Assembly: GCA_041664465.1 (NCBI GenBank)
Contig: JBAYKP010000001.1
Location: 68,204 to 132,203, forward strand
DNA from: Minisyncoccota bacterium
Lineage (GTDB): Bacteria > Patescibacteriota > Minisyncoccia > Phycocordibacterales > UBA9973
Reading direction: 5' to 3'
Length of the DNA: 64,000 nt
The first letter of the stretch is position 1. Each line of letters begins with the position of its first letter. Below the pieces are notes generated by a model. The model was not told where the DNA came from. It ran no database searches and saw only the letters and a program-made list of their open reading frames with translations. Below are positions 1,794-53,882 of the stretch, one piece after another. A program made the position numbers and the translations under genes.

Positions 1794-3578
1794 TTATATA
1801 AATTCAGCTTGATAACATTTCTCGCAATACACTATCTCCTTCCTGTCTTCACTTATTGCTGTTTCAAAATTATTCTGACATGGTTCACTCCCATGAGCAT
1901 GTTCTACTGTATTTCTGTATTCTTTATTCTCTGATTCTATACCACCACACATACATTTCCTAGTTTCTAATTTTAATGGATTTGTTTTCTTAAGCCTTTC
2001 ATAATGTCTACAATTAGGGCACAAATGAGGTAAAGCTATTTTCATAGAACGATATAAGATTAATTCATCAGGTAATATTTTGTATGCAGTTGTGCATTGC
2101 TGATTGCAATCTCCTCCATTATGCTCACATTCTATAACTTCATCTAAAATTGAATCTTCTACATTATCAATATGATCTGGTAAATCAACTGATTTCATTG
2201 TTATTGTGTAATCTCTTTCTGTAGAATCACTCCAAATGAAACCCTTCTCAAGAGCTTGATCTTTAGTTAAAGGAAACCATTGATGAGCCCATGATTCATT
2301 GTAGGTCCACATAGAATGCTCTTTGGGATAAAAATCTCCATATTTATAAACTCTACCCTCTTTGTCTATATAAGGCATATCATTCATGTGTTTTTTAATC
2401 CTTGGAATTAATTCTTCATATTCTTCCTTCGTATATTGCTTATTCAAAATACAATATTTTTTATGTCTTAATTTCGCACAACCAAAAAGATTTGTTCCTC
2501 CATAAACATTTTCGCAATATTCTGAATCAATAGTATTATTACTTGATCGTGTAAAAAAGGTATTTTGGCAACGTATAGCCCCTGTTGCTTCATATAAAAG
2601 CTCTGAAGTATCTCCCCCGAGAGTCATATCATAACTATCTTTTAATAATAAACCTCCATGAAAAATATACTTACAATTTTGAACCCCATGAGTCGCAGAA
2701 AAGCAATTCTTGCAACTTTTTGAATTTTGTATATCATCTCCTGAAACATCGATCGAATTAGAAATTAAGGCAAATTTTCTTGGTATTTTATAATACAGCT
2801 CAGCAAATTTTATTTTTGCTTTCTCAATAATAGAATAGCTTCCTAAATTATATTTTAATATTTCTTCTTCATAATCTTTTTTAGAATATTGTTTATTCCA
2901 AATACAATACTTTTGATTCCTCAAATTTATACAACCAAAACACTTAGAGCACCCAAGACAATTAAAAAGAAAAGAAGAATCTATACACTCATCGGAAAAA
3001 TAAGTAAATTTTGTATTATATAAATCACCTGAATTTAAAATTTCATAAACATGATCAGCATTTATTACAAAGTCTGCATCAAGAGAGTCTTTGGTAAATA
3101 TTGGGGTTAAACAATAATAACAATTAATACACTGCATGCCACTGAAGACAAAGGTGCAATTTTTACAACGAATAATTCCATTGCAATATTTGCAATCAGT
3201 TGAATTTTGAATATTAGTTGCCTGGCATGGCACAACTTTTCTCAATTCATCTAATTGCTCAAAAAATGGTTTAGAAAAATCATATTCTTTGCCATAAGAA
3301 AGTGGATTCCAGCTATCACTCCACCAACAATCATTACAAAAGACAACTACTTCTCTGGTTGGAGAAAACAAACTGATGGTATCTTTACCGCAGTTATCGC
3401 AAGAATCTTTATATAAAGTTCTTTCTGAGATATTATTTAACCTATTTATTAATCTACACTCTGGGCAGAAAGTTGGTGGTGGAACTTTAATTTTCTCATA
3501 AAATGAGAAATCATCAGGCTCAATGGTGAAATTAAGCTTGCAGTTCTGACAGGTTCTGTTTTCTGGTTTATGCTCCAT
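1794..3578 (-). CDS. cytoplasmic multi-CxxC (zinc-ribbon-rich) protein of unknown function with an internal duplication
   Basis: 594-aa ORF with more than 20 CxxC/CxxxC pairs. The module ...C..CFGC..L...KYCI(W/L)NKQY(S/T)K(K/E)(D/E)YEE... occurs twice. No signal peptide and no recognised catalytic motif. Confidence 0.5.
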   Translation of the reverse strand: MEHKPENRTCQNCKLNFTIEPDDFSFYEKIKVPPPTFCPECRLINRLNNISERTLYKDSCDNCGKDTISLFSPTREVVVFCNDCWWSDSWNPLSYGKEYDFSKPFFEQLDELRKVVPCQATNIQNSTDCKYCNGIIRCKNCTFVFSGMQCINCYYCLTPIFTKDSLDADFVINADHVYEILNSGDLYNTKFTYFSDECIDSSFLFNCLGCSKCFGCINLRNQKYCIWNKQYSKKDYEEEILKYNLGSYSIIEKAKIKFAELYYKIPRKFALISNSIDVSGDDIQNSKSCKNCFSATHGVQNCKYIFHGGLLLKDSYDMTLGGDTSELLYEATGAIRCQNTFFTRSSNNTIDSEYCENVYGGTNLFGCAKLRHKKYCILNKQYTKEEYEELIPRIKKHMNDMPYIDKEGRVYKYGDFYPKEHSMWTYNESWAHQWFPLTKDQALEKGFIWSDSTERDYTITMKSVDLPDHIDNVEDSILDEVIECEHNGGDCNQQCTTAYKILPDELILYRSMKIALPHLCPNCRHYERLKKTNPLKLETRKCMCGGIESENKEYRNTVEHAHGSEPCQNNFETAISEDRKEIVYCEKCYQAEFI

Positions 3579-6430: not shown

Positions 6431-7729
6431 TTATATAGGCAAATCTGAAGGTGGCTTTGCAATCTTGGATTCAATACGCTTGAAGCTTGGGGTCTCAGAA
6501 ACCATACCTGGGAAGTGATAAATAGTAGCTAATTCTTCAAGAGAAAGAACAAATATCTGAGATCTACCAGATGGGAAAAAGGCAGATATCAAGCTCGGAT
6601 ATTTTATAGAGTTCTGGATTGGAGGATGGAAGAATACTCGTAAACGATAGAAGTCGAGCATTCTCTTCTTGATCTTAGTCAGTGCGAGTCCTGTAGGGTC
6701 TGCCCAAGGTGCATCAAACTGAGTAGCATTTAAACGTTCAAGCTGGTTGGAATTGGGCTGAGCAAATTGGCGAAAAACAAGACGGCAAGACTTGCGAAGC
6801 TCATTGAACTTTTCAAGAGAATGCAGTCTCTTATCTGCAAATACTATAATTCTAATACCAACATCAAAATGTATCTGCCCAAGACATGCCGTCATCTGCT
6901 TGACGATAAGATCCAAGAATCCAGGAGCTCGAACTTCAAAAGTATCTATACCACCGAGACCCATACCTTTACCATATTTCGTAAAGGGCTCAAGCATATT
7001 TCTAATATATTCTTCGGCATAATCATAAAAGTTGAGATGCTTGTGAGTCAGAGGACCGTGATACATCTTGATATCTTGTCTGATAATTATCTGAATCCAC
7101 ATTTGCTGACCTTTTGGCAGAGAACCTAGATATTCAATAGTAGGAGTAAGCGGATCAACTTTGAACTCTTCTTTAATCCCACTTTTCATATCATCCATCT
7201 GTTTGTATGTCCTTATAGGCTGAACATCATCTTTTTCTTTGGCGAATTCAGCACCCCACATATTCCAATCTCCGTTTTTCGTGTATTGAGGAATATTCCA
7301 AACATAATCTTCAGCTTCCATAACTTTGGCTTGCGGATATTGAGCGTATATCTGAGTCTCTACCAAGTCTCTGATTCTAGATGGGGTACGAATATAAAAA
7401 TGTACTCGTCCATCAATAGAGACCATTTCAAGTGAAAACCAAAGCCACGGAGCACCTATCATATATTCTTCCCAGAATCCTTTCTTACTTCGATGATAAA
7501 AAGCATTCGAGAAAACGAGCTCCATCGCGGCTGGAGTCTTGATCACATCTCTTGGGACTTGAATTTCAAGAAGCACCCATTTAATACCAGCAATAAAACG
7601 CTCTTGTCGGTAGTGATGCCACAAATATACGGCTGCATACGCTAAAGGAATCGGCATCAAGTAACCGATGAAAACGATCAGCATTTGTAAAAGATTGAAA
7701 GTATGAGTATTAAGAAAGTCTTGTATCAT
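6431..7729 (-). CDS. conserved hypothetical protein, N-terminal membrane anchor, no recognisable catalytic motif
   Basis: 432 aa, with a TM segment near the N-terminus (LLQMLIVFIGYLMPIPLAYAAVYLW). No Walker A. Contains W-rich segments and ends ...SLEELATIYHFPG.... Confidence 0.4.
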   Translation of the reverse strand: MIQDFLNTHTFNLLQMLIVFIGYLMPIPLAYAAVYLWHHYRQERFIAGIKWVLLEIQVPRDVIKTPAAMELVFSNAFYHRSKKGFWEEYMIGAPWLWFSLEMVSIDGRVHFYIRTPSRIRDLVETQIYAQYPQAKVMEAEDYVWNIPQYTKNGDWNMWGAEFAKEKDDVQPIRTYKQMDDMKSGIKEEFKVDPLTPTIEYLGSLPKGQQMWIQIIIRQDIKMYHGPLTHKHLNFYDYAEEYIRNMLEPFTKYGKGMGLGGIDTFEVRAPGFLDLIVKQMTACLGQIHFDVGIRIIVFADKRLHSLEKFNELRKSCRLVFRQFAQPNSNQLERLNATQFDAPWADPTGLALTKIKKRMLDFYRLRVFFHPPIQNSIKYPSLISAFFPSGRSQIFVLSLEELATIYHFPGMVSETPSFKRIESKIAKPPSDLPI

Positions 7730-12729: not shown

Positions 12730-13431
12730 TTATATCACAAGAGCTATATGCTCCAAAATCATTTTGACCGATGCGCCGGGGATGCTTAGAAAACCTCGGC
12801 AATTTTTAAGTTCTTCTAGAATAAATTTCAAATCTTCATTATTCAGATCTTTCTTCCACTTTTCATACACTCTCCTCTCGATACCATTCACGAGCGAGAT
12901 AGCATAATACCGAAGCCCTCCACTATTCTCATTATCTTTAAATTCTTTTATTATTTCTGCCACTTTTTCGATTCTTTCTTTTGGATTCATTTTCACAAAC
13001 TCCCCACCTATTTTATTCTCAAAATTATTATCTCTTTTTAAATTCTTTATCAGATGCACTCGTGAAAGTATCGTCTCGGCAAGTAATGATGCATCAGGCA
13101 CAACAATGAAGAAGTGCGTATCGTCCATAGGCTCTTCTATTATTTTAAGCAGACTTTGCTCAGCTTCACGATTGATAAATTTGGCTCCAATAATGCAAAC
13201 TTTCTTCTTGCCATCTACCCCTTTATTCTTGTGCCAATCCTTAATATTGTGTCCATCTTCTATATTAAATGCATCATAGAGATTAAGCAATACATCTGGG
13301 CTTCTTTTATTTATATCACCTCGTTCTTCTAAATATATACGCAAAAGATAGACAATCTCTTCTGGATTACCCTCTACAACATAACTATGATACAAATTCT
13401 GTGGGAATAATTGACTAAAATCCATATACAC
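12730..13431 (-). CDS. holB: DNA polymerase III delta-prime subunit-like clamp-loader protein
   Basis: AEQSLLKIIEEP (box VII, AxNALLKxLEEP) and SRVHLI (SRC motif). It is short, like CPR HolB. Confidence 0.65.
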   Translation of the reverse strand: MYMDFSQLFPQNLYHSYVVEGNPEEIVYLLRIYLEERGDINKRSPDVLLNLYDAFNIEDGHNIKDWHKNKGVDGKKKVCIIGAKFINREAEQSLLKIIEEPMDDTHFFIVVPDASLLAETILSRVHLIKNLKRDNNFENKIGGEFVKMNPKERIEKVAEIIKEFKDNENSGGLRYYAISLVNGIERRVYEKWKKDLNNEDLKFILEELKNCRGFLSIPGASVKMILEHIALVI

Positions 13432-14552
13432 TATTGTACCTCAAATGGGAAATATTCGGAAAGCTCGCCTGAATAATAGAATTCATAAGAAAGACCTCCG
13501 AAAGTATAATCTCTATCACTAATAGTAATAGTGGAGCCTCCAACTTCTGGATTCTCTTTTGGTATTGATTTATTGAACCCTAAATTGAATAAAGTAGCGA
13601 GAACTTCTGGACGATCGTTGATAAGGAAGCCTGCCGTCTCCCACTGATGCATTATTTCCTTTAAAAATACAGCCGTATACATATAAGAATAATAATGATT
13701 CTTATCATCTGCTAATCTATTCATCAATTCTGTATCAGGATTGGCATCTCCATAATTAAAAATATTTTCATAATTAGCCCCTAGATAAAATGGACTTTGG
13801 CTATCTTTCAAATTACTTTCAATAATTTTAGCCGTTTCAAATTTAACACCTGCTACTCCATAAGAAAATTTCGTACCATTACCGAGAACTTTCAATGGTT
13901 CAAAATATTTCTTGAATGATTCACGATTGGCCGTAAAGAATCTAAATTGCTCCGAGATAACAGTCGAGACTATGATTCTAGAAGGTACACCCGAGTCCTT
14001 ACTTGCTTGCAGTATCACATCTTTATCTTTCACCAAAGCATCTCTTAAGGTCATCCACTCAGGAGAAGACATCCAAGAGAAAATACTCTGAGCCGAAGGA
14101 TTGTCCCCTAAAGAAAATATATTCTGTCCAATGCTATCACAACTAGCCACTTTATCTTTTAAGAATGAATTATTATTCTCGGTGACAAGTAGAATTGCAT
14201 TTATCATTTTCTCGGCTACGATTTGCGACTTGGTTGTGATGTATGCATCTAGTATCCTCTCGCCATTCTCTGGCAAGATAGAAGTAATCGTCATAACTTT
14301 GCATTCTACTCTAGGGTCTAATTTGTTGAAATTGGTGGCTGTCGTAGTTTTTTTAAAAATTGGCAAAATCGCCTCCTTTTTACTGGCATTATTGAAAAAG
14401 GCATTACGAGAATCAATACTACCTTTCACATCTGTCAGGTGAAGTCGCATAGCTACAAAAACACCAGAAAAAACTATTCCCAAAAGAGCAAAGCCACACA
14501 CAATAACAATTAATATTATTTTTAATGTCTTTTTATTTTTTATAAATTTCAT
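13431..14552 (-). CDS. hypothetical membrane-anchored extracytoplasmic protein
   Basis: An N-terminal TM segment (ILIVIVCGFALLGIVFSGVFVA), then a ~340-aa domain with no recognised motifs. It lies between holB and mreB. Confidence 0.4.
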   Translation of the reverse strand: MKFIKNKKTLKIILIVIVCGFALLGIVFSGVFVAMRLHLTDVKGSIDSRNAFFNNASKKEAILPIFKKTTTATNFNKLDPRVECKVMTITSILPENGERILDAYITTKSQIVAEKMINAILLVTENNNSFLKDKVASCDSIGQNIFSLGDNPSAQSIFSWMSSPEWMTLRDALVKDKDVILQASKDSGVPSRIIVSTVISEQFRFFTANRESFKKYFEPLKVLGNGTKFSYGVAGVKFETAKIIESNLKDSQSPFYLGANYENIFNYGDANPDTELMNRLADDKNHYYSYMYTAVFLKEIMHQWETAGFLINDRPEVLATLFNLGFNKSIPKENPEVGGSTITISDRDYTFGGLSYEFYYSGELSEYFPFEVQ

Positions 14553-14554
14553 TT

Positions 14555-15604
14555 TTATCTTTTACTTAAAATTGTTTTCTTGTAAGTTTCTAAATGGTTC
14601 AATGCTTCTCCTGTTCCTTTCACAACACAGAGAAGTGGATCCTCAGCTACTCTGGCTTTCACTCCTGTACGTCTATAAACAAGCTCAGATAAATTACGTA
14701 ATTGAGAAGACCCCCCTGTCATAATAATTCCATCATCAATAATATCGGCTGAAAGTTCAGGTGGAGTAAGGGATAGGACTTCCTTGATAGCTCCTATCAT
14801 TGTACGTAATTCTTTATCTATCGCTCGCACTATTTCATTGGTAGATATCTGAGCTGTGCGTGGAAGACCTTGGATAAAGTCTCGCCCTTTGATAGTAATA
14901 GTCAGTTCTTCTTCGAGTGGTATAGCGGCACCTATCTTTATCTTTATGGCTTCAGCAGTTCTATCACCAATAGCTAGGTTGAAAGTCTTCTTTATATAGT
15001 CTGCAATCGCGAGGTCTATCTTATCTCCAGCACATTTGACTGAAGTAGAAGCCACAATACCGCCAAGAGCAATCACTGCGACGTCAGTCGTACCTCCACC
15101 GATATCCATTATCATATGTCCTTTTGATTCGTGTATCGGTATACCTGCTCCGATAGCTGCCAAGATAGGCTCCTTCACAACGTAAGCATTTGAAGCTCCT
15201 GCTTTCACTGCTGCTTCTACTACCGCACGACGCTCTGTAGAAGTAATACCGGCAGGGACCGAGACCATCACATCTGGTTTGAATAAATTATATTTGCCTA
15301 AAGTTTTAGTTATGAAATAACGAAGCATTGCTTCGGTTACTCTATAGTCAGCTATCACGCCATCTTTCATTGGACGATAGACAATGATACTTTCAGGAGT
15401 CTTGCCTATCATTTCTTTGGCCTCAATACCTATAGCCAGAATTGTATTGTCTTGCTCAGAGACAGCGACAACAGAAGGCTCATTCAGGACGACACCCTTC
15501 CCAGGCAAATACACGAGAGTGTTCGCAGTCCCTAAATCAATCCCTAATTTTTTAGAAAATATAGCCATATGTTTATTAGTAATAGCACTATAACATAAAA
15601 ACAC
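14555..15604 (-). CDS. mreB: rod-shape-determining protein MreB
   Basis: LGIDLGTANTLVY (phosphate 1), DIGGGTTDVAV (phosphate 2) and TGGSSQLRNL (adenosine motif). Likely start is MAIFSKKLGIDLG at 15568. Confidence 0.9.
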   Translation of the reverse strand: MFLCYSAITNKHMAIFSKKLGIDLGTANTLVYLPGKGVVLNEPSVVAVSEQDNTILAIGIEAKEMIGKTPESIIVYRPMKDGVIADYRVTEAMLRYFITKTLGKYNLFKPDVMVSVPAGITSTERRAVVEAAVKAGASNAYVVKEPILAAIGAGIPIHESKGHMIMDIGGGTTDVAVIALGGIVASTSVKCAGDKIDLAIADYIKKTFNLAIGDRTAEAIKIKIGAAIPLEEELTITIKGRDFIQGLPRTAQISTNEIVRAIDKELRTMIGAIKEVLSLTPPELSADIIDDGIIMTGGSSQLRNLSELVYRRTGVKARVAEDPLLCVVKGTGEALNHLETYKKTILSKR

Positions 15605-15642: not shown

Positions 15643-17640
15643 ATGTATATAGTCACAGTCATTCCAATACAAAAAGGATTCCAAAAGGAAAACCTCTCTT
15701 ACTTTTCGCCACAAGATATTCCGCTTGGAAGTATCGTCTCTATCCCTATCAAATCTAAAACCGTAGATGCAATTGTAATAAACGTAGAAGACGCTCGTAA
15801 TTTAAAATTTGACTTAAAAAAGGCTGATTTTCAATTAAAAAAGATAATCGGGGTGAAAGGTCATTCCCCTTTCTCGTCTGCCTTTTTTAGTGCTTGTGAA
15901 AAAATGAAAGATTATACAGTGAGCAATACTGGTACTATTATTAAAGCGCTTCTTCCTAGTGCTTTTTTAGAAAATTTAACCGCCTTATCGGCGGTCCGCC
16001 GAAAAGGCGGAAAGGAAGACTCCATAGAAATAAGTCCAGAAGAAAATATTAATGAAAAAATAGAACTAAAAAATATCAAACAAGAAAAATTAATATTCCA
16101 AGCTCTGACACCTGATCGTATGAGCTGGTATAGGACACTCATAAGAGAAGCCTTTGCTAAGAAAGAATCCGTCTTCATCTGCGTCCCGACTCATTATGAT
16201 ACAGAACAATTCAAGAACGAGCTCACGAAAGGTATTAGCCAATACGTCTTCTCTTTCCATGGAGATTTAAATAAGAAAACTCTCATTAGTAGCTACAACT
16301 CTTGCATCAATGAACCTCATCCGATACTTATCATCGGAACTGGAATGTTCTTGTCAATCCCGAGAGACGATATTAAAACTATCATCATAGAACATGAGAA
16401 TTCCGACGCTTACAAACAATATGCTAGACCTTTCATTGATATCAGAACTTTTGCTGAAATACTTTCTTCTATAAATAAAGTTAAACTAATTTTCGGTGAT
16501 ACGCTTCTCCGCCCAGATACACTTTATAGGCACGATGAAGGCGAGCTTGGCGAAGTCGCCTCTCCCTTATTTCGTTTACCACAAGCTGAAAGGCAAATGG
16601 TCGTAGATATGAAGGAAGAAATAGATGAAAAAGGTTCAAAGACTTTCACTGTCTTATCAGAGACAACAAAAAAGATGATCTCTTACGCAATAGAACACAA
16701 TGAATCTGTATTATTGTTTACTATACGTAAAGGACTTGCTGGGGTGACAGTCTGCCACGATTGTGGGAATACACTTCTCTGCCCTAATTGCTCTACCCCC
16801 GTAGTCTTGTATGGATCCAAGCAACGTAATGCTACGAAGATAGTAAATTCGCGTATATTTATGTGCAACAAATGCGGACACAAAGAAAATACCGAAGTAA
16901 GATGTGCTATTTGTTCTAGTTGGAATCTTACCCCGCTTGGTATTGGTACTGACAGAGTATATGAAGAGGTTTCGAAACTTTATCCAAATACAAAAATAAT
17001 CCAGATGGATAAAGAGACAATTGGTACAGATAAAGAAGCTAAAGAAGCAATAACCTTATTCTATAAAAATCCTGGAAGCATTCTCATAGGAACTGAGATG
17101 GTTTTCTCTTATTTAAATACGGGGGTTATACATAGTGCTATCATTTCGCTCGATGGACTTCTCTCTATTCCAAGTTTCAATATTACACAAAAGATTCTAC
17201 ACATAATGGAAAAGCTCCATGAGATAACGAAACGTAATCTCGTAATCCAGACTCGTATCCCAGAGAATGGAATCTTGGAGCATATTCTAAATGGCAATGT
17301 CCTACCCCTCTATCGCGAAGATTTGAAAGAAAGGAAACAGTTTGGCTATCCACCATTTAAACGACTTATAAAAATAACTTTCGCAGGATCTGCCACAGAT
17401 ACAGAGAAAGCCCGCTCTTTCATAGATAGATATCTAGGAGGATATGAGCCACAGATATTCAGTGCCTTTATAGGGAAAGTGAAAGGTGAATACATTACCA
17501 ATACAATCATCAAGATAGATCCTACTCTCTGGCCATTACCGATAGATGACAAGAATACTTTAAGCACACACCTCTCGGAGAATCTCCATCATCTCTCCCC
17601 ATCATTCTCTATAAACGTAGACCCCGAAGATTTGCTATAA
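15643..17640 (+). CDS. priA: primosomal protein N' (PriA) homologue with degenerate helicase ATPase motifs
   Basis: PriA architecture is present: an N-terminal 3'-DNA-binding-like domain, and the Cys-rich zinc region CHDCGNTLLCPNCSTPVVLY...MCNKCGHKEN...CAICSS. Walker A (GxxGSGKT) is replaced by ALTPDRMSWY, and DEEH is replaced by IIEHENSDAYKQ. Confidence 0.75.
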   Translation: MYIVTVIPIQKGFQKENLSYFSPQDIPLGSIVSIPIKSKTVDAIVINVEDARNLKFDLKKADFQLKKIIGVKGHSPFSSAFFSACEKMKDYTVSNTGTIIKALLPSAFLENLTALSAVRRKGGKEDSIEISPEENINEKIELKNIKQEKLIFQALTPDRMSWYRTLIREAFAKKESVFICVPTHYDTEQFKNELTKGISQYVFSFHGDLNKKTLISSYNSCINEPHPILIIGTGMFLSIPRDDIKTIIIEHENSDAYKQYARPFIDIRTFAEILSSINKVKLIFGDTLLRPDTLYRHDEGELGEVASPLFRLPQAERQMVVDMKEEIDEKGSKTFTVLSETTKKMISYAIEHNESVLLFTIRKGLAGVTVCHDCGNTLLCPNCSTPVVLYGSKQRNATKIVNSRIFMCNKCGHKENTEVRCAICSSWNLTPLGIGTDRVYEEVSKLYPNTKIIQMDKETIGTDKEAKEAITLFYKNPGSILIGTEMVFSYLNTGVIHSAIISLDGLLSIPSFNITQKILHIMEKLHEITKRNLVIQTRIPENGILEHILNGNVLPLYREDLKERKQFGYPPFKRLIKITFAGSATDTEKARSFIDRYLGGYEPQIFSAFIGKVKGEYITNTIIKIDPTLWPLPIDDKNTLSTHLSENLHHLSPSFSINVDPEDLL

Positions 17641-17671: not shown

Positions 17672-17920
17672 ATGATTACAGTAATTGAGGTAAAAAAGAA
17701 TACAAACGAGAACAATATGAATCTAATTCGTAGATTTAGTCGTAAGGTTTTAGAATCTGGAATTATTCAAAAAGTTAAAAGTAAGCGTTACAACGAGAGA
17801 GCTCCCTCAAAAGTCAAAGTAAAGATAGCAACCTTAAAGAAAATCAATCGCCGAAAGACTCTTCTCAAATTACAAAAGCTCGGTAAGGCTCCTATACAGA
17901 CCAAGCGTGGACATCGTTAA
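17672..17920 (+). CDS. rpsU: 30S ribosomal protein S21
   Basis: The small basic protein ...LIRRFSRKVLESGIIQKVKSKRYNERAPSKVKVK... resembles bS21 (ALRRFKRSCEKAGVL..RRREFYEKPT). Confidence 0.7.
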   Translation: MITVIEVKKNTNENNMNLIRRFSRKVLESGIIQKVKSKRYNERAPSKVKVKIATLKKINRRKTLLKLQKLGKAPIQTKRGHR

Positions 17921-17932
17921 TAAATATAAATT

Positions 17933-18325
17933 ATGAGTATGATAGAGAAAGAATTTTCCACTATTGTAAATCTTACAAAAGGCAAGCTACCACGCTTGCC
18001 TTTTGTCTTTATTAAAAATGCTATCCTAGGTAAAAAATATGATCTAGAAGTAGTGTTCTTGACATCCAAAAAACAGAAAGAGATAAATAAAATCTACAGA
18101 AACATAGATAAAACAACCAATATTTTATCTTTCCCTTTGACAAAGACTTCGGGGCAAATAACATTTGATTTATCAAAAGTTAAGAAAGATGCTCCACTTT
18201 TTGATATGATTTACCCCAAATTTCTTAAATATCTGTTTATACACGGGGCTTTGCATTTGAAAGGATACGATCATAGTGCTATAATGGAAAGACAAGAAAA
18301 GAAATTTCTAAAAATGTTTTCTTAG
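17933..18325 (+). CDS. ybeY: endoribonuclease YbeY (rRNA maturation factor)
   Basis: The C-terminal HGALHLKGYDH is the YbeY HxxxHxxGxxH zinc motif. Confidence 0.85.
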   Translation: MSMIEKEFSTIVNLTKGKLPRLPFVFIKNAILGKKYDLEVVFLTSKKQKEINKIYRNIDKTTNILSFPLTKTSGQITFDLSKVKKDAPLFDMIYPKFLKYLFIHGALHLKGYDHSAIMERQEKKFLKMFS

Positions 18326-18331
18326 CTTTTT

Positions 18332-19507
18332 ATGGCAATTAAAAATAATATAAATGTTGGTATAGATATAGGGACTCACACTATTAAGGTAGTAGTCGTG
18401 GGTTATGACAAGGAAACGAAAGCTCCCTCTTTATTGGCGACTGGCTCGGCCGAAACGACAGGGATGAGATTGGGCTATATCACAAACATAGACCAAGTAG
18501 CCGACGCACTCAAGAAAGCAGTCAAGCAAGCGGAAACGTCACTTGGTTTCAAGATTCGTAAAGCTTGCATTTCTATAAGTGGCATAAGTCTAAGCTCTTC
18601 TATCTCTACAGGCTCCGTTATCATTTCTCGTGCTGATCAAGAGATAACCGAGCTAGATATCTCTAAAGCATTAGCAATGAGCGAAGAGAATCTAGAAATT
18701 TTAAATAAGAAAATCATACACATCATCCCAGTTGAATACAAACTTGACGGTAAAATTATCCACGGACGACCAGAAGGAATGCATGGCATTAAGCTTGAAG
18801 TGAAAACTCTATTCGTTACTTGCTTGAAACAAAACATAGATGATCTCATCACTGTATTAGGGCTCGCCAACATAGAAGCCATAGATGTACTAGCCACGCC
18901 CGTCGCATTATCTGGAATATTACTCAATACCAAGCAGAAGACAGCTGGGTGCGCGCTTATAGATATTGGAGCTGAAACTGTCTCCTTATCAGTCTTTGAA
19001 AATAATCTGCTTATATCTCTGCAAGTCTATTCTCTCGGCAGTATGGATATTACCAAAGACGTCGCTCTCGGTTTCAAAATAGGATTAGATGAAGCCGAAA
19101 GTGTAAAGCTAGGAAGTGTCCTCGGCGGAGATTATCCAAAGAAAAAAGTTGATGAAATTATCGAAGCAAGACTAGGTGACATATTTGAATTAGTCGAGAA
19201 TCATTTGAAAAGAATCAAACGCAACGAACTTCTTCCAGCTGGAGTAATCATCACAGGTGGAGGAGCCAACATTCTCCGTATCGAAGAAATTGCTCGTAAA
19301 CAATTAAACCTTCCGGCCAAAGTAGGACCAGCCGATGGGACTATCAATAATAAATTAAAAATAAAAGATCCGACTTGGTATGGAGCCTTCGGACTTGCAT
19401 TATATTCTCCACAAATAATAAATCACAGCATAGAAAATTCTATCGGAGATAGTATGAGGCAAGCCAAAGGATTTTTCAAATCAATTTTCTCGCAACTTTT
19501 ACCTTAA
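18332..19507 (+). CDS. ftsA: cell division protein FtsA
   Basis: VGIDIGTHTIKVVV (actin-fold phosphate 1), DIGAETVSLSVF and ITGGGANI. It lies immediately upstream of ftsZ. Confidence 0.85.
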   Translation: MAIKNNINVGIDIGTHTIKVVVVGYDKETKAPSLLATGSAETTGMRLGYITNIDQVADALKKAVKQAETSLGFKIRKACISISGISLSSSISTGSVIISRADQEITELDISKALAMSEENLEILNKKIIHIIPVEYKLDGKIIHGRPEGMHGIKLEVKTLFVTCLKQNIDDLITVLGLANIEAIDVLATPVALSGILLNTKQKTAGCALIDIGAETVSLSVFENNLLISLQVYSLGSMDITKDVALGFKIGLDEAESVKLGSVLGGDYPKKKVDEIIEARLGDIFELVENHLKRIKRNELLPAGVIITGGGANILRIEEIARKQLNLPAKVGPADGTINNKLKIKDPTWYGAFGLALYSPQIINHSIENSIGDSMRQAKGFFKSIFSQLLP

Positions 19508-19620: not shown

Positions 19621-20805
19621 ATGCCTAAAATAAACCCAGACATAGAATCATTCGCTAGAATTAAGGTTATCGGTATTGGTGGTTCAGGGAAAAATGCCCT
19701 CAATCATATGATAGCCTCAAAAGTAAAAGGAGTGGAATTCATAGTTATGAATACTGATACTCAGGATTTGCATAACTCACTCGCTGAAAAGAAGGTCCAC
19801 CTTGGTAAAAATTTAACTAAAGGTCTCGGAGCTGGAATGAATCCAGAAATTGGAAAGCGTGCCGCCGAAGAAACAAAAGCTGAGATTCAAGATGTTATCA
19901 AAGGAGCTGATATGGTATTTATCGCTTGCGGTATGGGAGGAGGTACTGGTACAGGAGCTGCTCCTATCGTCGCTCAAGCTGCCAAAGAGCAAGGAATTCT
20001 TACTGTCGCCGTTGTCACTAAACCATTTTCATTTGAAGGAAATCAAAGAATGAAGATAGCCGAAGCTGGACTCTCCGAGCTTGAACGTGAAGTTGATGCA
20101 ATTCTTGTAATTCCAAATGATAGACTTATAGTTATTTCTGGTAAAGATGTCGGATTCAGACAAGCCTTCGAACTTTGTGATGAAGTGTTGAAGCAAGCCG
20201 TAGAAGGTATCTCTGAACTTATCACCACCCCTGGAATGATCAACGTAGACTTCGCAGATATCAAAGCTGTAATGTCCGATGCAGGAAGTGCTCTTATGGG
20301 AGTAGGAATTGCCGCTGGAGAAGGTAGAGCTGAGAAGGCTGCCTTACAAGCTATCAATTCCCCACTTCTAGATCTTTCTATTTCTGGAGCAAAAGGAGTT
20401 CTCTTTGCTATCTCAGGAGGAGATGATCTCACTATCCACGAAATCCAAGAAGCCGCTAAGATAATCACTGAGTCTATCGATAAAGAAGCCAAAGTAATAT
20501 TTGGAACTATTAGCGACGACAAGCTCAAGAAAGGCGAAATGAAAGTGACAGTCATCGCGACTGGCTTCCCTACTGATATGCCGAAGCGTTCACTATTCCA
20601 GATTCATCAAAAGGCCAATGAGCCAACAGTAAATTCTTCTACCAAAGAAGAGATTCTACAAGCGGTCAATGGTAAAGATTCTTCTTCTGATTACATCAAG
20701 AAAAATGATAAAGATAAAACAGAAAAAGCAGAAGATGATCTATTCATAGATGATACTGATGATTGGAGTACAGTGCCTGCGTTTTTGAGAAGAAATAAGA
20801 AATAG
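19621..20805 (+). CDS. ftsZ: cell division GTPase FtsZ
   Basis: GIGGSGKNA, the GGGTGTGAAP tubulin signature, and NVDFAD. Confidence 0.95.
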   Translation: MPKINPDIESFARIKVIGIGGSGKNALNHMIASKVKGVEFIVMNTDTQDLHNSLAEKKVHLGKNLTKGLGAGMNPEIGKRAAEETKAEIQDVIKGADMVFIACGMGGGTGTGAAPIVAQAAKEQGILTVAVVTKPFSFEGNQRMKIAEAGLSELEREVDAILVIPNDRLIVISGKDVGFRQAFELCDEVLKQAVEGISELITTPGMINVDFADIKAVMSDAGSALMGVGIAAGEGRAEKAALQAINSPLLDLSISGAKGVLFAISGGDDLTIHEIQEAAKIITESIDKEAKVIFGTISDDKLKKGEMKVTVIATGFPTDMPKRSLFQIHQKANEPTVNSSTKEEILQAVNGKDSSSDYIKKNDKDKTEKAEDDLFIDDTDDWSTVPAFLRRNKK

Positions 20806-20812
20806 AATTTTT

Positions 20813-20838
20813 AAAAAATCCCCATTAGGGGATTTTTT
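20813..20838. terminator. rho-independent terminator after ftsZ
   Basis: aaaaaatcccc-atta-ggggatttttt. Confidence 0.6.
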
Positions 20839-20860
20839 AAATTATGTTAAAATAGCCAGT

Positions 20861-22547: not shown

Positions 22548-22627
22548 TTATAATTTTCTGCTGAAAATTTATGCGACCCCGCCTCGGCTCGACAGCCTCC
22601 GGCTCGCACAAAATCTCCCAGATTTTG

Positions 22628-22700
22628 TGCGCGGTGAGGGATTTGAACCCCCGGCCTACCCCACGTCAAGGGGTCGCTCTACCAACTGAGCTAACCGCGC
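22628..22700 (-). tRNA. tRNA-Val (anticodon GAC)
   Basis: Reverse complement is GCGCGGTTAGCTCAGTTGGTAGAGCGACCCCTTGACGTGGGGTAGGCCGGGGGTTCAAATCCCTCACCGCGCA. The 7-bp acceptor stem, D, anticodon (loop TTGACGT) and T arms all fold. No encoded CCA. Confidence 0.8.
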
Positions 22701-22718
22701 AAAAAATTAAAAAACGGG

Positions 22719-22805
22719 CGGAAGCGGTGAGATTCGAACTCACGATACGGTTTCCCGCATGTCACTTTTCGAAAGTGATGCCTTCAACCTCTCAGCCACG
22801 CTTCC
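22719..22805 (-). tRNA. tRNA-Ser (anticodon CGA), type II with a long variable arm
   Basis: Reverse complement is GGAAGCGTGGCTGAGAGGTTGAAGGCATCACTTTCGAAAAGTGACATGCGGGAAACCGTATCGTGAGTTCGAATCTCACCGCTTCCG. Anticodon loop is TTCGAAA. No encoded CCA. Confidence 0.8.
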
Positions 22806-22869
22806 CAAATATTAACCTTCTGATTATAAACAAAAACCCTCGAATTATCAAGGTCTAAATTATTAATTA

Positions 22870-38955: not shown

Positions 38956-39636
38956 CTAGGTTTGAGGTTCTAGGGTTTCAAAATAATTTTCAACAAATTC
39001 CTTAAAAGATTGTTTATTATGAAAATAATCTGGAAAATTATCTTTATTTAAAATACTATTTTCTATTCTATCATCTCCTGTATAATCTTGATAACTAGAA
39101 TATTTATATGATTCTAAAAAGTTCTTCATATCTACTGATGACTTATTCAAATTATCTTCCCACTCAGGAAATTCTATCTCTAATGAATTAAGATGAATAT
39201 ATGCAAATAATTGTCTTAAATAATTATCATCATTCCCTACTAATTTAGCTTTAAATAATCCTCCAAATAATGCTCCTTTTCTTTGATATTTTATATTAAA
39301 AAACATTGAATATCCTACTCCTAATTTTCTCATAAATTTAGTTATACCACCATCAACATCTTGTCTAACTAATATGTGAAAGTGATTGTTCATCAAACAC
39401 CACGCACCAATAGAGATAATACTCTTTTCTTTTTTGATTTTTAAAATATCATAGTATTTTTTATTTTGATTATTTACAAGATTATCAATCCGAAAAGATT
39501 CTTCAGAGTTTGCGAGATAAAGAAGCATAATAAATCTTTCATAATCTCCTTTGATTTTAAAAATTACTCTCTTATCAATACCCCTATTATAAATATGGTA
39601 ATATTCTCCTGTTATAAATGGATCTTTCCTTAACAT
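38956..39636 (-). CDS. IS200/IS605-family Y1 (HUH) transposase, REP-associated tyrosine transposase (RAYT)-like
   Basis: GEYYHIYNRG..., LMNNHFHILV (HUH motif) and ...QLFAYIHLNSL (candidate catalytic Tyr). It is flanked on both sides by the same 25-bp REP. Confidence 0.6.
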   Translation of the reverse strand: MLRKDPFITGEYYHIYNRGIDKRVIFKIKGDYERFIMLLYLANSEESFRIDNLVNNQNKKYYDILKIKKEKSIISIGAWCLMNNHFHILVRQDVDGGITKFMRKLGVGYSMFFNIKYQRKGALFGGLFKAKLVGNDDNYLRQLFAYIHLNSLEIEFPEWEDNLNKSSVDMKNFLESYKYSSYQDYTGDDRIENSILNKDNFPDYFHNKQSFKEFVENYFETLEPQT

Positions 39637-46018: not shown

Positions 46019-47413
46019 TTATCTTTTAAACCATTCTCTTACTACACTTTCTGCTGGTTTGTTGCGGACACTGTGAGCCATTTGGGGCTGTGAATTACTA
46101 GGTAGAATGACGTCTGTATACCAATATCCATATGATTCAACTCCGCCTACTTTAAAATATTTACCATCGGTTTCTTTGATAGCTTCCATCATTGCTTCAT
46201 AAGCAATAGCCTGAGAAGAGAAATCTACTTCCAAATTTTTCTGGAAACATGGGTCATCCATTTTCTTAATACAGAACATATCTTCACTCCATCCTTTTTC
46301 TAAGAATTCTTTTGATGATTGAACAAGGATTCTTAAATGAATTGGTTTATTATATTTGCTGAATCCTTTACCTACATTCATAAAGTTCTCTAAATAAAGC
46401 CCTTTAAGATTATCCACATTCACTACTTTATTGCTTCTATTATTCAAGATATTTGTCGTTGGGGTATATATGTATCCATCCACTTGTTTTAAAAGATTAT
46501 CAAGTTTGTTTAAGTTTGAATCCCACAAAGGATCAATCATCAATAGCACCTTTCCTTTATAGACATTTCTCACTTTCCCCAATAGAACAAGCATATCTTT
46601 CTCGTAAGCATCTTCGAAATCTTTGATGCTTGGCTGATAATCAAAGTGATTGATCATGAGTGCATCTATCCCCGTTTCTTCTGCAATTTTTGCTTGATTT
46701 AAGACGAAGGGCTCCCAATTTTTAATAAGAGTACCAAGCCAAGTTGCATTAGGAATATCTGAAACTACTTGTTTCCCCGGAGCAAGATTAAGATAAAGAA
46801 TCATTTTCAAATTCTTTTCTTTAGCTTTATCTACTACGAACCTTAAATCCCCTTCTTTTATTGCAGCTTTTTCTGGGCCATCAATCAAAGCATTTTTGAA
46901 ATCTGAGAAGTGCACGTAGTTTGAGAAACTAATTTGATCTGCTCCAAGGTTCACTACCCTATCAAGAGTTTCTTCATAGGCTTTTCTCATTGGCTTAGAG
47001 TCTAGGGCTATACAGCTTTTATTCAAGTTTGGTTCTTTGATCCAAGTATCCTTTATTCCTATGGTTCTATTTATTTCACCTACAAAAGGGGCACCTTCTA
47101 CAGATGGCATCTCATACTTACCCAGATAACTTTTAGGGTAACTTACTTCACTTTTAGTGATAGCACAGTAAGGGTCTTTGACTGCGACATTAGAAACATT
47201 AGGATTTTTATAGAAATCTGGATAATTAATTTTATTTATATCTGTGGATATAGTTATGGCATTGACCAAATCCACCTTCTCCATTTTCGAAGCACACCAA
47301 GGAGCCGTAGGCCAAGGACCTGCAGGAGGACACAATTTGAATACAAACATTAAAATAGTAGAAACAATAAATAGAAAAACAAAACTAATTATTATAATTG
47401 GAAATCTTTTCAT
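46019..47413 (-). CDS. secreted protein, possible TIM-barrel glycoside hydrolase-like
   Basis: N-terminal TM/signal segment. Length and alternating beta/alpha character are consistent with a glycosyl hydrolase, but no catalytic motif was confidently identified. Confidence 0.3.
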   Translation of the reverse strand: MKRFPIIIISFVFLFIVSTILMFVFKLCPPAGPWPTAPWCASKMEKVDLVNAITISTDINKINYPDFYKNPNVSNVAVKDPYCAITKSEVSYPKSYLGKYEMPSVEGAPFVGEINRTIGIKDTWIKEPNLNKSCIALDSKPMRKAYEETLDRVVNLGADQISFSNYVHFSDFKNALIDGPEKAAIKEGDLRFVVDKAKEKNLKMILYLNLAPGKQVVSDIPNATWLGTLIKNWEPFVLNQAKIAEETGIDALMINHFDYQPSIKDFEDAYEKDMLVLLGKVRNVYKGKVLLMIDPLWDSNLNKLDNLLKQVDGYIYTPTTNILNNRSNKVVNVDNLKGLYLENFMNVGKGFSKYNKPIHLRILVQSSKEFLEKGWSEDMFCIKKMDDPCFQKNLEVDFSSQAIAYEAMMEAIKETDGKYFKVGGVESYGYWYTDVILPSNSQPQMAHSVRNKPAESVVREWFKR

Positions 47414-49746: not shown

Positions 49747-50256
49747 TTGATATCATATGATATAATAAAAATTATGGGAAAGATAAATATCTACATTGAT
49801 GGAAATAATTTATATCGCTCGGCCAAAGAATTAGGATTTGAAATTGATTATAAAAAGTTCCGTGTATGGTTATCTCAAAAATATAATACAAAAAACATAT
49901 TTCTTTTTATTGGGTATTTAGAAAATAGAAAAGATTTTTATAATTATCTTAAAAATTGTGGTTTTGATTTAATATTTAAAGAAGCAGTTCTTCATGAAGG
50001 TAATATTAAGGGAAATTGCGATGCCGAACTTGTATTAAAATCGGTTGATGATTATCATCTAAAGAATTTTGATAAATTTATACTAATTTCTAATGATGGA
50101 GATTTCGGTTGTCTTATTGAATTCTTAATAAATAAAAATTGTTTTGACATTATATTATCTCCTGATAGAAAGAAGTGTTCTATTTTATTGAGAAATAAAA
50201 CAAATAAGATTTTATATTTAAACGAAATTTATAAAAAGTTCTCAAAAAAGAAATAA
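49747..50256 (+). CDS. NYN-domain (PIN-like) putative ribonuclease
   Basis: INIYIDGNNLY, GNCDAEL, ILISNDGDF: the acidic residues of the LabA/NYN fold. Confidence 0.6.
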   Translation: MISYDIIKIMGKINIYIDGNNLYRSAKELGFEIDYKKFRVWLSQKYNTKNIFLFIGYLENRKDFYNYLKNCGFDLIFKEAVLHEGNIKGNCDAELVLKSVDDYHLKNFDKFILISNDGDFGCLIEFLINKNCFDIILSPDRKKCSILLRNKTNKILYLNEIYKKFSKKK

Positions 50257-50414
50257 TATAGTCTATATAAAAAGAAAAAGCTCCCGGTATGGGCGCACCC
50301 ATACAGGGATCTCTTTCATAATGATATCAGTATTATATCATATTGCCGAAAGTATGCAAGTATTTTATTTAGGTTCGAACTTCTACCAAAGCAGGGAAAA
50401 TAGATCTTAAATTA

Positions 50415-50438
50415 CCTAACAAGAACCGTTCTTGCTAT
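50415..50438. repeat. degenerate REP copy (cctaacaagaac-c-gttcttgctat)
   Basis: Two mismatches relative to the 38912 REP. It is intergenic, next to the R-M/MazG block. Confidence 0.5.
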
Positions 50439-50444
50439 ATTTAA

Positions 50445-50840
50445 TTAGTTTTGATTATTATTTTCTAACTTTTTTATCTTTTTGAATTTATACCACCCAA
50501 TAATTACTGGTAAGACAAAAGTTAAAATATAATAAATATAAACATCGATTTTATAATAACCAGTTACTTTAAGTACTTTAATCATGAAAATATAATCCAA
50601 AGCCACTGCCATAATAGCCCAAATAACCCCTAATCCGATATAACACCCAAATTCTTCTCTTTTAATTTTCTTAAGCAACACCCAAAGAGTAAACGCTATT
50701 CCGAAAGGCATAATGCTCCAGCCTATAAATTCTTTTGGCACAAAAGCAAAAAATACAAATCCTAAAACATAGCCAAAAAGCCAAACAATAAATCCCCAAA
50801 AAACAGTATTAAGAAAAATTTTCCCTTTATTTGTTTCCAT
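50445..50840 (-). CDS. hypothetical four-TM membrane protein
   Basis: Hydrophobic profile only. Confidence 0.35.
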   Translation of the reverse strand: METNKGKIFLNTVFWGFIVWLFGYVLGFVFFAFVPKEFIGWSIMPFGIAFTLWVLLKKIKREEFGCYIGLGVIWAIMAVALDYIFMIKVLKVTGYYKIDVYIYYILTFVLPVIIGWYKFKKIKKLENNNQN

Positions 50841-50843
50841 AAA

Positions 50844-51092
50844 TTAATATCTATATTTATAAGGCTTCACCGTTCCTTTCTTCCCTGAATAAGGATTATA
50901 ATTCCCTTTTGTAGAATAGTTATCTAACTTGGTTTTATTTGGAGAAGTTCGGTAAGAAGGTGCTACATATTTCATAGTGGAAGGTTTAAAATAACCTTTT
51001 ACTTTAACAGTCTTGGCTTCTACAGATGAGACAGATACAAACAACCCTAATAATAGAAACCCTAGAATACTTAAAACTGCAAGTTTTTTCAT
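50844..51092 (-). CDS. small secreted K/Y-rich protein
   Basis: Signal peptide MKKLAVLSILGFLLLGLFVSVSSVEA, then a Lys/Tyr-rich 55-aa tail. Confidence 0.35.
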   Translation of the reverse strand: MKKLAVLSILGFLLLGLFVSVSSVEAKTVKVKGYFKPSTMKYVAPSYRTSPNKTKLDNYSTKGNYNPYSGKKGTVKPYKYRY

Positions 51093-51152
51093 ACAATATT
51101 TGAAGTGATTATTAATATCCTAATCATATGCCTATTTATGGATAAATCAAGG

Positions 51153-51866
51153 CTAAATACTTTTTATTGAATGAATAACCTTATCCATAAAATTATCATA
51201 GTCATTTAATATAATTCCATCTCCAAAAGTCACGAGTGATTTTTTTGATAATTTTAATTCAATACTATTTTTAATACTTAAATAATATTTCTTATATTGA
51301 GATTTTTTTATTATTTTATCTTTTATTAGATCCGGAAATTTAATCATAAATATTAATGTTTTTGTGGGCGTATGGAAAAATACATCTTCATCGTCTTGTG
51401 ATAATTTAAAATACTTATGGATATTATTGTCCGTAATTTTTTCCCACTTTGTGATCATACCCTTATTGTTATAATAAGGTAATTCTTCTGGTAAAACTAA
51501 AATCTGATAATATTTTTTCTTATTAGCTCTTATATTTGCTGTTTCTCCTAACATATTTTCAAAATAATTATTTGAATTTTGAGAATAATTATTCATGACA
51601 AATTTAACAGCAACTCCGGCAAGATCTTTTTTGTCTTTAAAAATAGTAATATCTACTGTCTTGTCCATATATCTACCTTCCATTTTAGCTTCTTTCCCCT
51701 TCCCCAAACCAAGGGAACTGACAGTGTATTTATTCCCAAGTCTTTTTTCTAAATCTTTCGCAATTGCCCCATGAAGTATTTTTAACTTTTCATTACTTCG
51801 TGAATGTGTTTGTAAAAATTTTACAAATGATTGACTTACTATTTTCAAAAATTTTTGATTATTCAT
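51153..51866 (-). CDS. putative type II restriction endonuclease (partner of the adjacent methyltransferase)
   Basis: It lies immediately downstream of, and is co-oriented with, the N6A MTase, 23 nt apart. The candidate PD-(D/E)xK-like segment MDKTVDITIFKDKK gives no family-level match. Confidence 0.35.
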   Translation of the reverse strand: MNNQKFLKIVSQSFVKFLQTHSRSNEKLKILHGAIAKDLEKRLGNKYTVSSLGLGKGKEAKMEGRYMDKTVDITIFKDKKDLAGVAVKFVMNNYSQNSNNYFENMLGETANIRANKKKYYQILVLPEELPYYNNKGMITKWEKITDNNIHKYFKLSQDDEDVFFHTPTKTLIFMIKFPDLIKDKIIKKSQYKKYYLSIKNSIELKLSKKSLVTFGDGIILNDYDNFMDKVIHSIKSI

Positions 51867-51889
51867 TTTTATGATTATTATATTAATTA

Positions 51890-53356
51890 TTAAAATAAAG
51901 ATGGCTGAACTTTATAAAATTGAGGATGAACAAAATCTTTCATGAAACTTTTAGCATATGATTTATATCCACCACGATAACTTTTGGAAATTGAATTTAT
52001 ATACTCTTCCATTGAATTTGAATTTAACACTTCGCAAAGGGCATATAGATCAACATCTTTATTTTTTGGTTTTATACAATAACCAGAATAAAAACTTGTT
52101 TTTTCGTCTTCTATTACAAAAAAGTGAGGAGTGAGATTCATTGTACTAGTTATTATTTTTTTACCAAAACCAGTTTTTAAACTTTGGTTTCTTCCAAAAG
52201 AATAAAATTCTTCATAATTTTTACCACCACCCTTGTCTCTTTTTTCTAAAATATCACGATTATATAAAAAATATTTATATGCTTCTGGATATTTATTTAT
52301 AAAAATATTTTTAGGAATTATTCTTTCATTTTTATACGGAAAAATCAAAAAAAGATTCTGATTTTTCCCTTTATAAGTAGATGCTTTAATAATTGGAACA
52401 CACAAATTTCTCTCTATTTTAAAATTATCTTTATAAAAATATATTTTATCTATTTTTTCAGGAGAAAATATATAAACATCATCTTTTAATGTAGCAATTC
52501 CATAATGGATGTCCGCTATTTCTTGAAGTGTTGAATATTTTTTATTTAATTTATCTATTTTTTTAGAATATTCTTCACTTAAAAATTGCCATGGTTTTAA
52601 CTTATCTTCTATATTTTTCAATATCTTTTTATAAACAATATCATTAAAATTATTTTTATAGTTCTCTGTATATAAAAAATTATGGGTATTTTCTTTATTT
52701 AAAAATGTTATGGCGGTGTAAGTTGTTGCGTCTTTAAATACCTGAAAGTGATCAAAATTAATGATTTTTGTTAAATGTGGATAAATTAAATTTCTTAAAT
52801 TTCTCCCAGCACTAGAGTGAAAATGAGAGTTAGGTGTAATAAAAGAAAGTTTCCCGTTTTCTGTTAATAAATTCAGAGACTGCTCAAAAAAACAAAAATA
52901 TAAATCAATGGAGCCATTAGATGCTGATATAAACTTCTTTTGTATTTCATCTCTTTTTTCATTAAGATTTTGTATTCTCACATATGGAGGATTACCTATT
53001 ATAAAATTAAATTTCTCTTTAAAATCATGAAAACAAAAATCATTAATAATTGAGTTATATTGGGTAATTTCTTCATTAGATAATTCTTGTAAATTTTGTT
53101 TTGTTTTGTTTATATATTCTTCTGAAATGTCAATAAAATAAAGATTGTTTTCAATTACATCTTTTATTGATTTTCCAGATATTTTAGAAAATTTCTTAAC
53201 TATTGGAATAGAAAAAGCACCTTCTCCACATCCAGAATCTAATATTTTTTCTGATCCTGTTATTTTTGTATCTTTAAATACTTCATCAATCATAAAATCA
53301 ACTATCCATTCCGGAGTAAAAACAACGCCATTTTCTTTTTTAGATTTAACATTCAT
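51890..53356 (-). CDS. N6-adenine DNA methyltransferase (gamma-class; TaqI/Eco57I-like)
   Basis: GVVFTPEWIVDFM (motif X), LDSGCGEGAF (motif I FxGxG) and IIGNPPY (motif IV) in gamma-class order. A C-terminal target-recognition region. Confidence 0.8.
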   Translation of the reverse strand: MNVKSKKENGVVFTPEWIVDFMIDEVFKDTKITGSEKILDSGCGEGAFSIPIVKKFSKISGKSIKDVIENNLYFIDISEEYINKTKQNLQELSNEEITQYNSIINDFCFHDFKEKFNFIIGNPPYVRIQNLNEKRDEIQKKFISASNGSIDLYFCFFEQSLNLLTENGKLSFITPNSHFHSSAGRNLRNLIYPHLTKIINFDHFQVFKDATTYTAITFLNKENTHNFLYTENYKNNFNDIVYKKILKNIEDKLKPWQFLSEEYSKKIDKLNKKYSTLQEIADIHYGIATLKDDVYIFSPEKIDKIYFYKDNFKIERNLCVPIIKASTYKGKNQNLFLIFPYKNERIIPKNIFINKYPEAYKYFLYNRDILEKRDKGGGKNYEEFYSFGRNQSLKTGFGKKIITSTMNLTPHFFVIEDEKTSFYSGYCIKPKNKDVDLYALCEVLNSNSMEEYINSISKSYRGGYKSYAKSFMKDFVHPQFYKVQPSLF

Positions 53357-53398
53357 ATTAATATATTATATCATTTTATACATACAAACTATAATTTT

Positions 53399-53785: not shown

Positions 53786-53882
53786 TATGGGGGATTTTTG
53801 GGATAAGTATTAAAGTAATATACCTTTTGCTTTTTTAGTCTATTTTTGCTACTATATTCTAGTCTATTATTAATAGACGTAT

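Follow-up and report, generated by a model that had tools for sequence, protein, structure and literature searches.

A PriA homologue with degenerate ATPase motifs, and probably a pseudohelicase, in Paceibacteria

We analyzed a 64,000-nt stretch of DNA from a Minisyncoccota bacterium (GenBank assembly GCA_041664465.1, contig JBAYKP010000001.1, positions 68,204–132,203 of the forward strand), referred to here as the window, and focused on a priA-like gene at positions 15643–17640 of its + strand. In our reading, to which we assign a probability of about 0.65, this gene encodes the orthologue of PriA (primosomal protein N′) in a bacterium of the Paceibacteria, within the candidate phyla radiation (CPR, or Patescibacteria), and its product is a pseudohelicase with a PriA fold. 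The protein is a PriA homologue both by sequence and by fold. Four of its ATPase motifs are degenerate, and the replacement residues are conserved across a very large group of relatives. An original prediction, made from the sequence alone, had described the protein as an intact PriA without a functional Walker A or DEEH box, confined to a scaffolding role in replication restart.

Identity and fold of the PriA-like protein

The open reading frame (ORF) begins with ATG and spans 665 codons plus stop, exactly as predicted. Among NCBIfam models, NF004066 (E-value 8e-64; 216 bits, curated cutoff 813) and TIGR00595 (E 3e-55; 187.8 bits, cutoff 230.35) matched the protein, which missed every curated PriA cutoff in that collection. 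PRK14873 models, which we take to represent PriA of the Actinobacteria/Deinococcus type, scored far lower than PRK05580-type models (78 versus 216 bits). The best relatives of solved structure, found with HMMER in the PDB, were the PriAs of Klebsiella and E. coli (E 1e-26, residues 162–577 of the query). Pfam recognized the 3′-end-binding domain (3′BD; PF17764, residues 18–105, E 1.8e-7, 31.4 bits, cutoff 22.7), and no Pfam match to DEAD, ResIII or Helicase_C was obtained in the protein even at E ≤ 1.

An AlphaFold2 model built from 76 family members had a mean predicted local distance difference test score (pLDDT) of 87.4 and a predicted template modelling score (pTM) of 0.85. When this model was compared to the PDB with Foldseek, the top nine matches were all PriA. 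The best was fork-bound E. coli PriA, 8FAK_H (template modelling score (TM) 0.77/0.80, E 6e-42), followed by an E. coli construct lacking the winged-helix (WH) domain, 6DCR (TM 0.68/0.71); the third match listed was apo Klebsiella PriA, 4NL4 (TM 0.67/0.65). Mfd was the next family, at only E 1e-8. The closer fit of the model to the fork-bound, pore-forming conformation (PMC10175261) is no more than a hint.

Compared to canonical PriA (E. coli and K. pneumoniae; 8FAK, 4NL4, 6DGD), the protein is only ∼21% identical, yet the overall fold is shared (TM 0.63–0.80). The 3′BD, two RecA-like lobes, an eight-cysteine region inserted in lobe 2, a C-terminal domain (CTD) and motif V are all in common. 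The differences lie in motifs I, II, III and VI, which are degenerate here; in the missing WH domain; in a longer hairpin in the cysteine-rich region (CRR); and in the curated cutoffs missed.

The 3′BD corresponds to residues 1–110 (15643–15972, +), the part covered by PF17764. No counterpart of the WH domain (E. coli residues 109–181) follows it; instead there is a short charged linker of ∼37 residues (111–147; 15973–16083, +), modelled as a single helix at low confidence (pLDDT 48–50). RecA-like lobe 1 (residues 148–335; 16084–16647, +) carries degenerate motifs I, II and III and is modelled with pLDDT >90. Lobe 2 (residues 336–560) contains the CRR as an insertion (residues 368–426; 16744–16920, +). 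The CTD (residues 561–665; 17323–17637, +) has a conserved YPPF, aligns with E. coli residues 600–732 and is modelled with confidence. Thus, of the PriA domain order originally proposed, the 3′BD, both lobes, the CRR and the CTD are present, whereas the WH domain is missing. Construct 6DCR has the same domain complement, with the 3′BD joined to the helicase core in the absence of a WH domain, although there the deletion was engineered into an active helicase, unlike the natural protein studied here.

The Cys4 zinc region of the original prediction proved to contain eight cysteines in four CxxC pairs (C371/374/380/383/408/411/421/424), all invariant in 76 sequences, and is therefore better described as a two-zinc region, with zinc binding predicted from the cysteine pattern. 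Its β-hairpin is ∼13 residues longer than the E. coli counterpart.

ATPase motifs

We assigned the motif register with a HMMER alignment and with MAFFT alignments to E. coli PriA and to seven canonical PriAs, which between them cover five phyla (Pseudomonadota, both gamma and alpha; Bacillota; Cyanobacteriota; Bacteroidota; and Fusobacteriota). The register was identical in all of these, and the motifs had thus been placed correctly in the original prediction, which had named its own possible mis-registration against model PriAs as a concern. Motif I (Walker A; 16099–16122, +) reads QALTPDRM (Q153–M160) in place of GVTGSGKT, with the glycines lost and Lys230 of E. coli replaced by Arg159. Motif II (Walker B; 16390–16401, +) reads EHEN (E250-H-E-N253) in place of DEEH. 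Hence both motifs are non-canonical in every alignment, as claimed, and the degeneracy extends beyond these two to a total of four. Motif III (16495–16509, +) is GDTLL instead of GSATP, and of motif VI (17212–17235, +) only a remnant is left: KLHEITKR stands where canonical PriA has QVAGRAGRAGKQG, five residues are deleted and the arginine finger is lost. Motif V (17083–17100, +), by contrast, is kept, as LIGTEM compared to LIGTQM in E. coli. No canonical GKT or DEEH was found anywhere in the protein, whereas the seven canonical PriAs all keep GVTxSGKTE, DEEH, SATP, GTQ and GRAGR.

These alignments indicate that the residues for ATP binding and hydrolysis are lost, lending support to the prediction of an ATPase- and helicase-dead protein. 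We infer from the motifs that normal ATP binding and hydrolysis have been lost. Arg159 lies next to a conserved acidic residue and faces conserved acidic positions of Walker B; a network of salt bridges among them, with Glu250 and Glu252 as suspected partners of Arg159, may occupy the pocket that once took up the nucleotide.

Conservation and selection across the family

A first database search returned 1258 relatives, the best 120 of which were 67–92% identical to the query; the exact sequence of the window protein had no entry in a contig index. When 1.84 billion cluster representatives were searched exhaustively, 1731 matched at E ≤ 1e-30; the best 150 of these span 34–65% identity and ∼520–680 aa in length. 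Unless stated otherwise, counts below refer to 151 members, namely the query plus these 150 divergent representatives. All 151 have Arg at the Lys230 position; directly before it, where canonical PriA has glycine, 139/151 have Glu or Asp. Glu is found at the position of catalytic Glu321 in only 8/151, with Arg, Lys, His or Asn in most members. The motif VI deletion is present in 151/151, and the Thr of motif V is kept in 147/151. An alignment of 54 divergent sequences has only 18 invariant columns, Arg159 among them. Conservation extends to the replacement motifs (e.g. DR..YRTLIRE, EHEsS.aYKQ and GDTLLRP). No member has kept Walker A or motif VI, while decay of motifs II and III is patchy, with one representative (P0206) still having DEEH and another (P0212) GATTP. 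This patchiness suggests one early inactivation, at Walker A and motif VI, followed by lineage-by-lineage drift at the remaining catalytic positions.

A scan with one genome per species showed that at least 564 species-level genomes encode relatives. The titles of the relatives' records name Paceibacteria, Paceibacterota, Nomurabacteria, Minisyncoccia and the Patescibacteria group. Loss of the ATPase motifs is a lineage trait of a very large Paceibacteria clade and not of this genome alone.

The gene is under strong purifying selection. In comparisons to the closest genomes, the proportion of nonsynonymous differences (pN) is ∼0.10, while that of synonymous differences (pS) is saturated at 0.75–0.85. 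Synonymous saturation, already present in comparisons to these genomes, makes dN/dS unusable, and we therefore report pN versus pS. Lobe 1, with its dead motifs, is among the most constrained regions of the protein (pN 0.077–0.085 for the four closest genomes). From locus to locus, its divergence roughly keeps pace with that of FtsA and YbeY.

The seven canonical PriAs are 38% identical among themselves and only 21% identical to the CPR family. In a neighbor-joining tree, the members of the CPR family fall into a single clade with a long stem branch (43/50 bootstraps; this support is approximate, given numerical warnings at very high distances). A mixed profile, made from the least-degenerate CPR members and canonical PriAs, returned only the same subfamily, with no intermediates and no canonical Patescibacteria PriAs. 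A tblastn search of a plasmid/chromid collection with E. coli PriA and the window protein as queries yielded canonical outgroups from other phyla but no Deinococcus-Thermus or actinobacterial PriAs. On P. aeruginosa plasmids of ∼160–200 kb (hits H14–H21 and H87–H98), a priA homologue is annotated that shares ∼39% identity with E. coli PriA.

Residues for DNA and partner binding

We compared the query and the 150 representatives to lists of functional E. coli residues (PMC5778457, PMC5175346, PMC10175261). In the 3′-end pocket, Tyr18 corresponds to Tyr20 here and is Tyr in 148/151; Lys61 is Lys or Arg in 145/151; and Asp17 is Ser or Thr in the family. The aromatic-rich loop, which binds DNA in E. 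coli PriA (PMC5175346), is partly kept (16402–16446, +; SDAYKQYARPFIDIR). Within it, Tyr327 is Tyr in 135/151 and Arg338 is Arg in 144/151, but the position of Trp333 is Pro in 146/151. On the CRR surface that docks PriB in E. coli, Asp438 corresponds to Asp373 and is Asp in 146/151. Residues Ser481-Thr482-His483, which dock PriB in E. coli (PMC10175261), align with an SSWNL patch (16915–16929, +), in which Thr482 is replaced by the family-specific Trp427 (Trp in 148/151) and His483 by Arg, Asn or Lys. These comparisons indicate that the DNA-recognition apparatus is largely kept, and that the partner-docking face is conserved yet unlike that of E. coli.

Gene neighborhood

Immediately upstream and divergent lies mreB (14555–15604, −; Pfam MreB_Mbl, E 2e-132). 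Downstream, on the same strand as the priA-like gene, are a small basic ORF of 82 aa (17672–17920, +), ybeY (17933–18325, +; PF02130, E 2e-20), ftsA (18332–19507, +; Pfam FtsA and SHS2_FTSA) and ftsZ (19621–20805, +; Pfam Tubulin and FtsZ_C), with successive gaps of 31, 12, 6 and 113 bp. A bidirectional terminator-like hairpin (20810–20841), with a 14-bp stem and a T-run on both strands, ends the cluster, and no such site was seen within it from priA to ftsZ. The 82-aa ORF matched TIGR00030 below threshold (E 1e-4; 22 bits, cutoff 28.95), had no Pfam match at 1e-3, and is probably a divergent ribosomal protein S21. Hence, of the rpsU-ybeY-ftsA-ftsZ operon originally proposed, the last three genes are confirmed by Pfam and strand, whereas rpsU corresponds to this weak S21 match.

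The order rseP-rrf-holB-(hypothetical)-mreB / priA-S21-like-ybeY-ftsA-ftsZ-trxB is kept down to 40% identity. Across 80 related loci, many of them truncated, mreB was found next to the priA-like gene in 69, the S21-like ORF directly after it in 60, ftsA in 56 and ftsZ in 49. At six loci (L007, L014, L027, L039, L047 and L058), an extra 1.2–2 kb separates the priA-like gene from the S21-like ORF. Between the holB-like gene and mreB lies a 373-aa ORF (13431–14552, −) to which neither Pfam nor NCBIfam assigns a family; found in only 39/80 loci, it is a variable insertion into a gene order that is fixed in other respects. The holB-like ORF itself (DNA polymerase III δ′; 12730–13431, −) encodes only 233 aa and scores 47 bits against NCBIfam cutoffs of 140–340, making it a second strongly diverged or shortened replication protein in the neighborhood.

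Discussion

Some actinobacterial PriAs are labelled probably non-helicase in UniProt/HAMAP. The PriA of D. radiodurans is a pseudohelicase with a Lys-to-Arg change, described by Lopper et al. in 2015 (PMC4504706); it neither hydrolyzes ATP nor unwinds DNA, yet it binds ssDNA and forks and forms complexes with DnaB (PMC4504706). The Deinococcus precedent that the original prediction had named is therefore real. A 2017 review describes PriA helicase activity as conserved ‘except in Deinococcus’, and in our literature search only Deinococcus-Thermus was described as having a PriA pseudohelicase, with no paper tying PriA motif loss to Patescibacteria/CPR. PriA of Deinococcus-Thermus and the CPR protein share poor matches to Walker A and B and the change of the GKT lysine to Arg, and both keep the rest of PriA; loss of ATPase and helicase activity is demonstrated for the former and presumed for the latter. 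No PriB or DnaT is known for either, although we made no search for PriB. Unlike the Deinococcus protein, the CPR protein belongs to the Patescibacteria/Paceibacteria, has also lost motifs III and VI, lacks the WH domain, and is compact at 665 aa. The weaker PRK14873 than PRK05580-type scores are only suggestive of a loss independent of that in Deinococcus.

A second point of reference is the engineered K230R variant of E. coli PriA (priA300), which has no ATPase, helicase or translocase activity but supports primosome assembly and near-normal growth via the PriA-PriB pathway, and is active in restart assays (PMC5778457). Like the CPR protein, it has Arg for Lys in Walker A, and it provides a direct experimental model of a scaffold-only PriA. 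It differs in being a single substitution in an otherwise canonical protein that needs PriB, whereas in the CPR protein the WH domain and four motifs have been lost and the CRR diverges at the PriB-docking residues (Thr482 to Trp; His483 to Arg, Asn or Lys).

If D. radiodurans PriA and E. coli priA300 are a guide, the CPR protein would act in restart purely as a scaffold. Retention of the 3′BD Tyr and Lys, part of the aromatic-rich loop, motif V, the CRR and the CTD points to DNA binding and partner recruitment. Abandoned forks or D-loops would be bound in the absence of ATP, via the 3′BD and a surface formed by the lobes, CRR and CTD. The protein would then serve, again without ATP, as a platform to which the replicative helicase is brought back directly or via a loader; the Asp373/Trp427 face of the CRR, which is conserved, is a candidate site for such docking. 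Forks with a duplex lagging arm would presumably need another helicase.

Several points weigh against this picture. When canonical PriAs were used as tblastn queries, they matched only the priA-like gene in the window and 80 related loci (1.13 Mb), which amount to ∼2% of each genome; in the same DNA (∼14 kb per locus), no PriA-type Walker A string was found. For helicase recruitment we can only infer, because no DnaB, loader or SSB, nor any second PriA, was found within the 64-kb window, which does encode gyrA, dnaE, rnhB and the holB-like gene. The helicase-dead priA allele of E. coli depends on PriB (PMC5778457). With Trp replaced by Pro in the aromatic-rich loop and the WH domain missing, the protein may not bind DNA in the way E. 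coli PriA does. Finally, the loss of ATPase activity in the CPR protein is itself predicted from its motifs.

The first of these points leaves room for a canonical, active PriA elsewhere in the genome, with the dead copy an accessory paralogue that modulates or competes with it. The small fraction of each related genome inspected and the failure to reach any curated PriA cutoff are compatible with this scenario, but we consider it unlikely. Neither a second PriA nor a PriA-type Walker A string turned up in the window or the related DNA, the priA-like gene sits within a conserved housekeeping cluster in at least 60/80 genomes, and database sources call its relatives primosomal protein N′. Moreover, CPR genomes are small, and paralogues of replication proteins are rarely kept in them. 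Slightly less likely still is that the protein has left restart for another task, such as that of a sensor of forks or DNA structures tied to cell division or the envelope. That idea draws on the synteny with ftsA/ftsZ and mreB, kept down to 40% identity; on the lack of a terminator-like site between priA and the downstream genes, with a strong one after ftsZ; on the long stem branch and the mere 21% identity to canonical PriAs; and on the family-specific CRR surface (Trp427). Yet the domains kept are exactly those for fork recognition, and the synteny may lack functional meaning, since unrelated housekeeping genes (S21-like, ybeY, trxB, rrf, holB) take part in it as well.

We regard as quite improbable a protein that still works as an NTPase or translocase through a non-canonical site, with Arg159, for instance, contacting phosphate. 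Arg159, the Glu/Asp at the Asp320 position and Glu252 are indeed conserved, a few members still have DEEH (P0206), and E. coli PriA has been proposed to have a second nucleotide site, a weak one (PMC5778457). On the other hand, the P-loop has kept none of its glycines and no Ser/Thr, another residue stands in for the catalytic Glu, and the deletion that removes the arginine finger of motif VI is found in 151/151. Furthermore, K230R by itself is enough to abolish ATPase activity in E. coli PriA, and in D. radiodurans PriA loss of activity goes together with this substitution. That the catalytic motifs are missing could also be taken as a sign of a decaying pseudogene or an assembly artefact, an explanation with almost no chance of being correct. 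The gene has 665 intact codons, hundreds of full-length homologues, and a pN of ∼0.10 against saturated pS; the replacement residues are conserved and the structure model is confident. Being common to hundreds of homologues, the degeneracy is not due to sequencing error or chance.

Under the preferred reading, that of a PriA orthologue acting as a pseudohelicase, the CPR protein is part of a new and very large group of PriA pseudohelicases, a kind of protein already known from Deinococcus. This second group of catalytically dead yet selected PriAs is far larger, with at least 564 species-level genomes, and its internal diversity is comparable to the depth between bacterial phyla. The existence of so large a group supports the view that fork recognition and primosome nucleation, rather than unwinding, are the indispensable job of PriA. 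It also bears on a question raised in the review, whether PriA can act alone without PriB, PriC and DnaT, for which a compact, ATP-independent PriA without a WH domain would offer a convenient model, coming as it does from a minimal genome. Because the proteins score under curated PriA cutoffs, many NCBI records call them ‘hypothetical protein’; owing to such labels, replication restart may be under-annotated in CPR genomes.

A broader and more speculative proposal, doubtful as a whole, joins these elements. Paceibacteria, and perhaps much of the CPR, would restart or organize replication with a minimal, ATP-independent PriA whose catalysis was lost once, early; the lineage-specific surface of the CRR, with invariant Asp373 and Trp427, would dock a partner other than PriB; and the conserved co-location with ftsA, ftsZ and mreB would reflect a real coupling of fork rescue to cell division in these very small cells. 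If true, this would be a natural minimal restart system, with partners and wiring distinct from those of both E. coli and Deinococcus.

Other features of the window

A stretch at ∼50000–54000 has a GC content of 0.26, compared to ∼0.36 elsewhere. It encodes an Eco57I/MmeI-type restriction-modification methylase (51890–53356, −), ends beside a tRNA-Asn gene (53883–53955, +), and looks like an island acquired at a tRNA gene. At 38956–39636 (−), flanked by def and fmt, is an IS200-like Y1 transposase domain (PF01797, E 2e-8). We rejected a 95-aa ORF (22571–22858, +) as a gene, as it is antisense to tRNA-Val (22627–22700) and tRNA-Ser (22717–22805). Three long ORFs, of 594, 432 and 464 aa (1794–3578, 6431–7729 and 46019–47413, respectively, all −), matched no Pfam family at E ≤ 1e-5.

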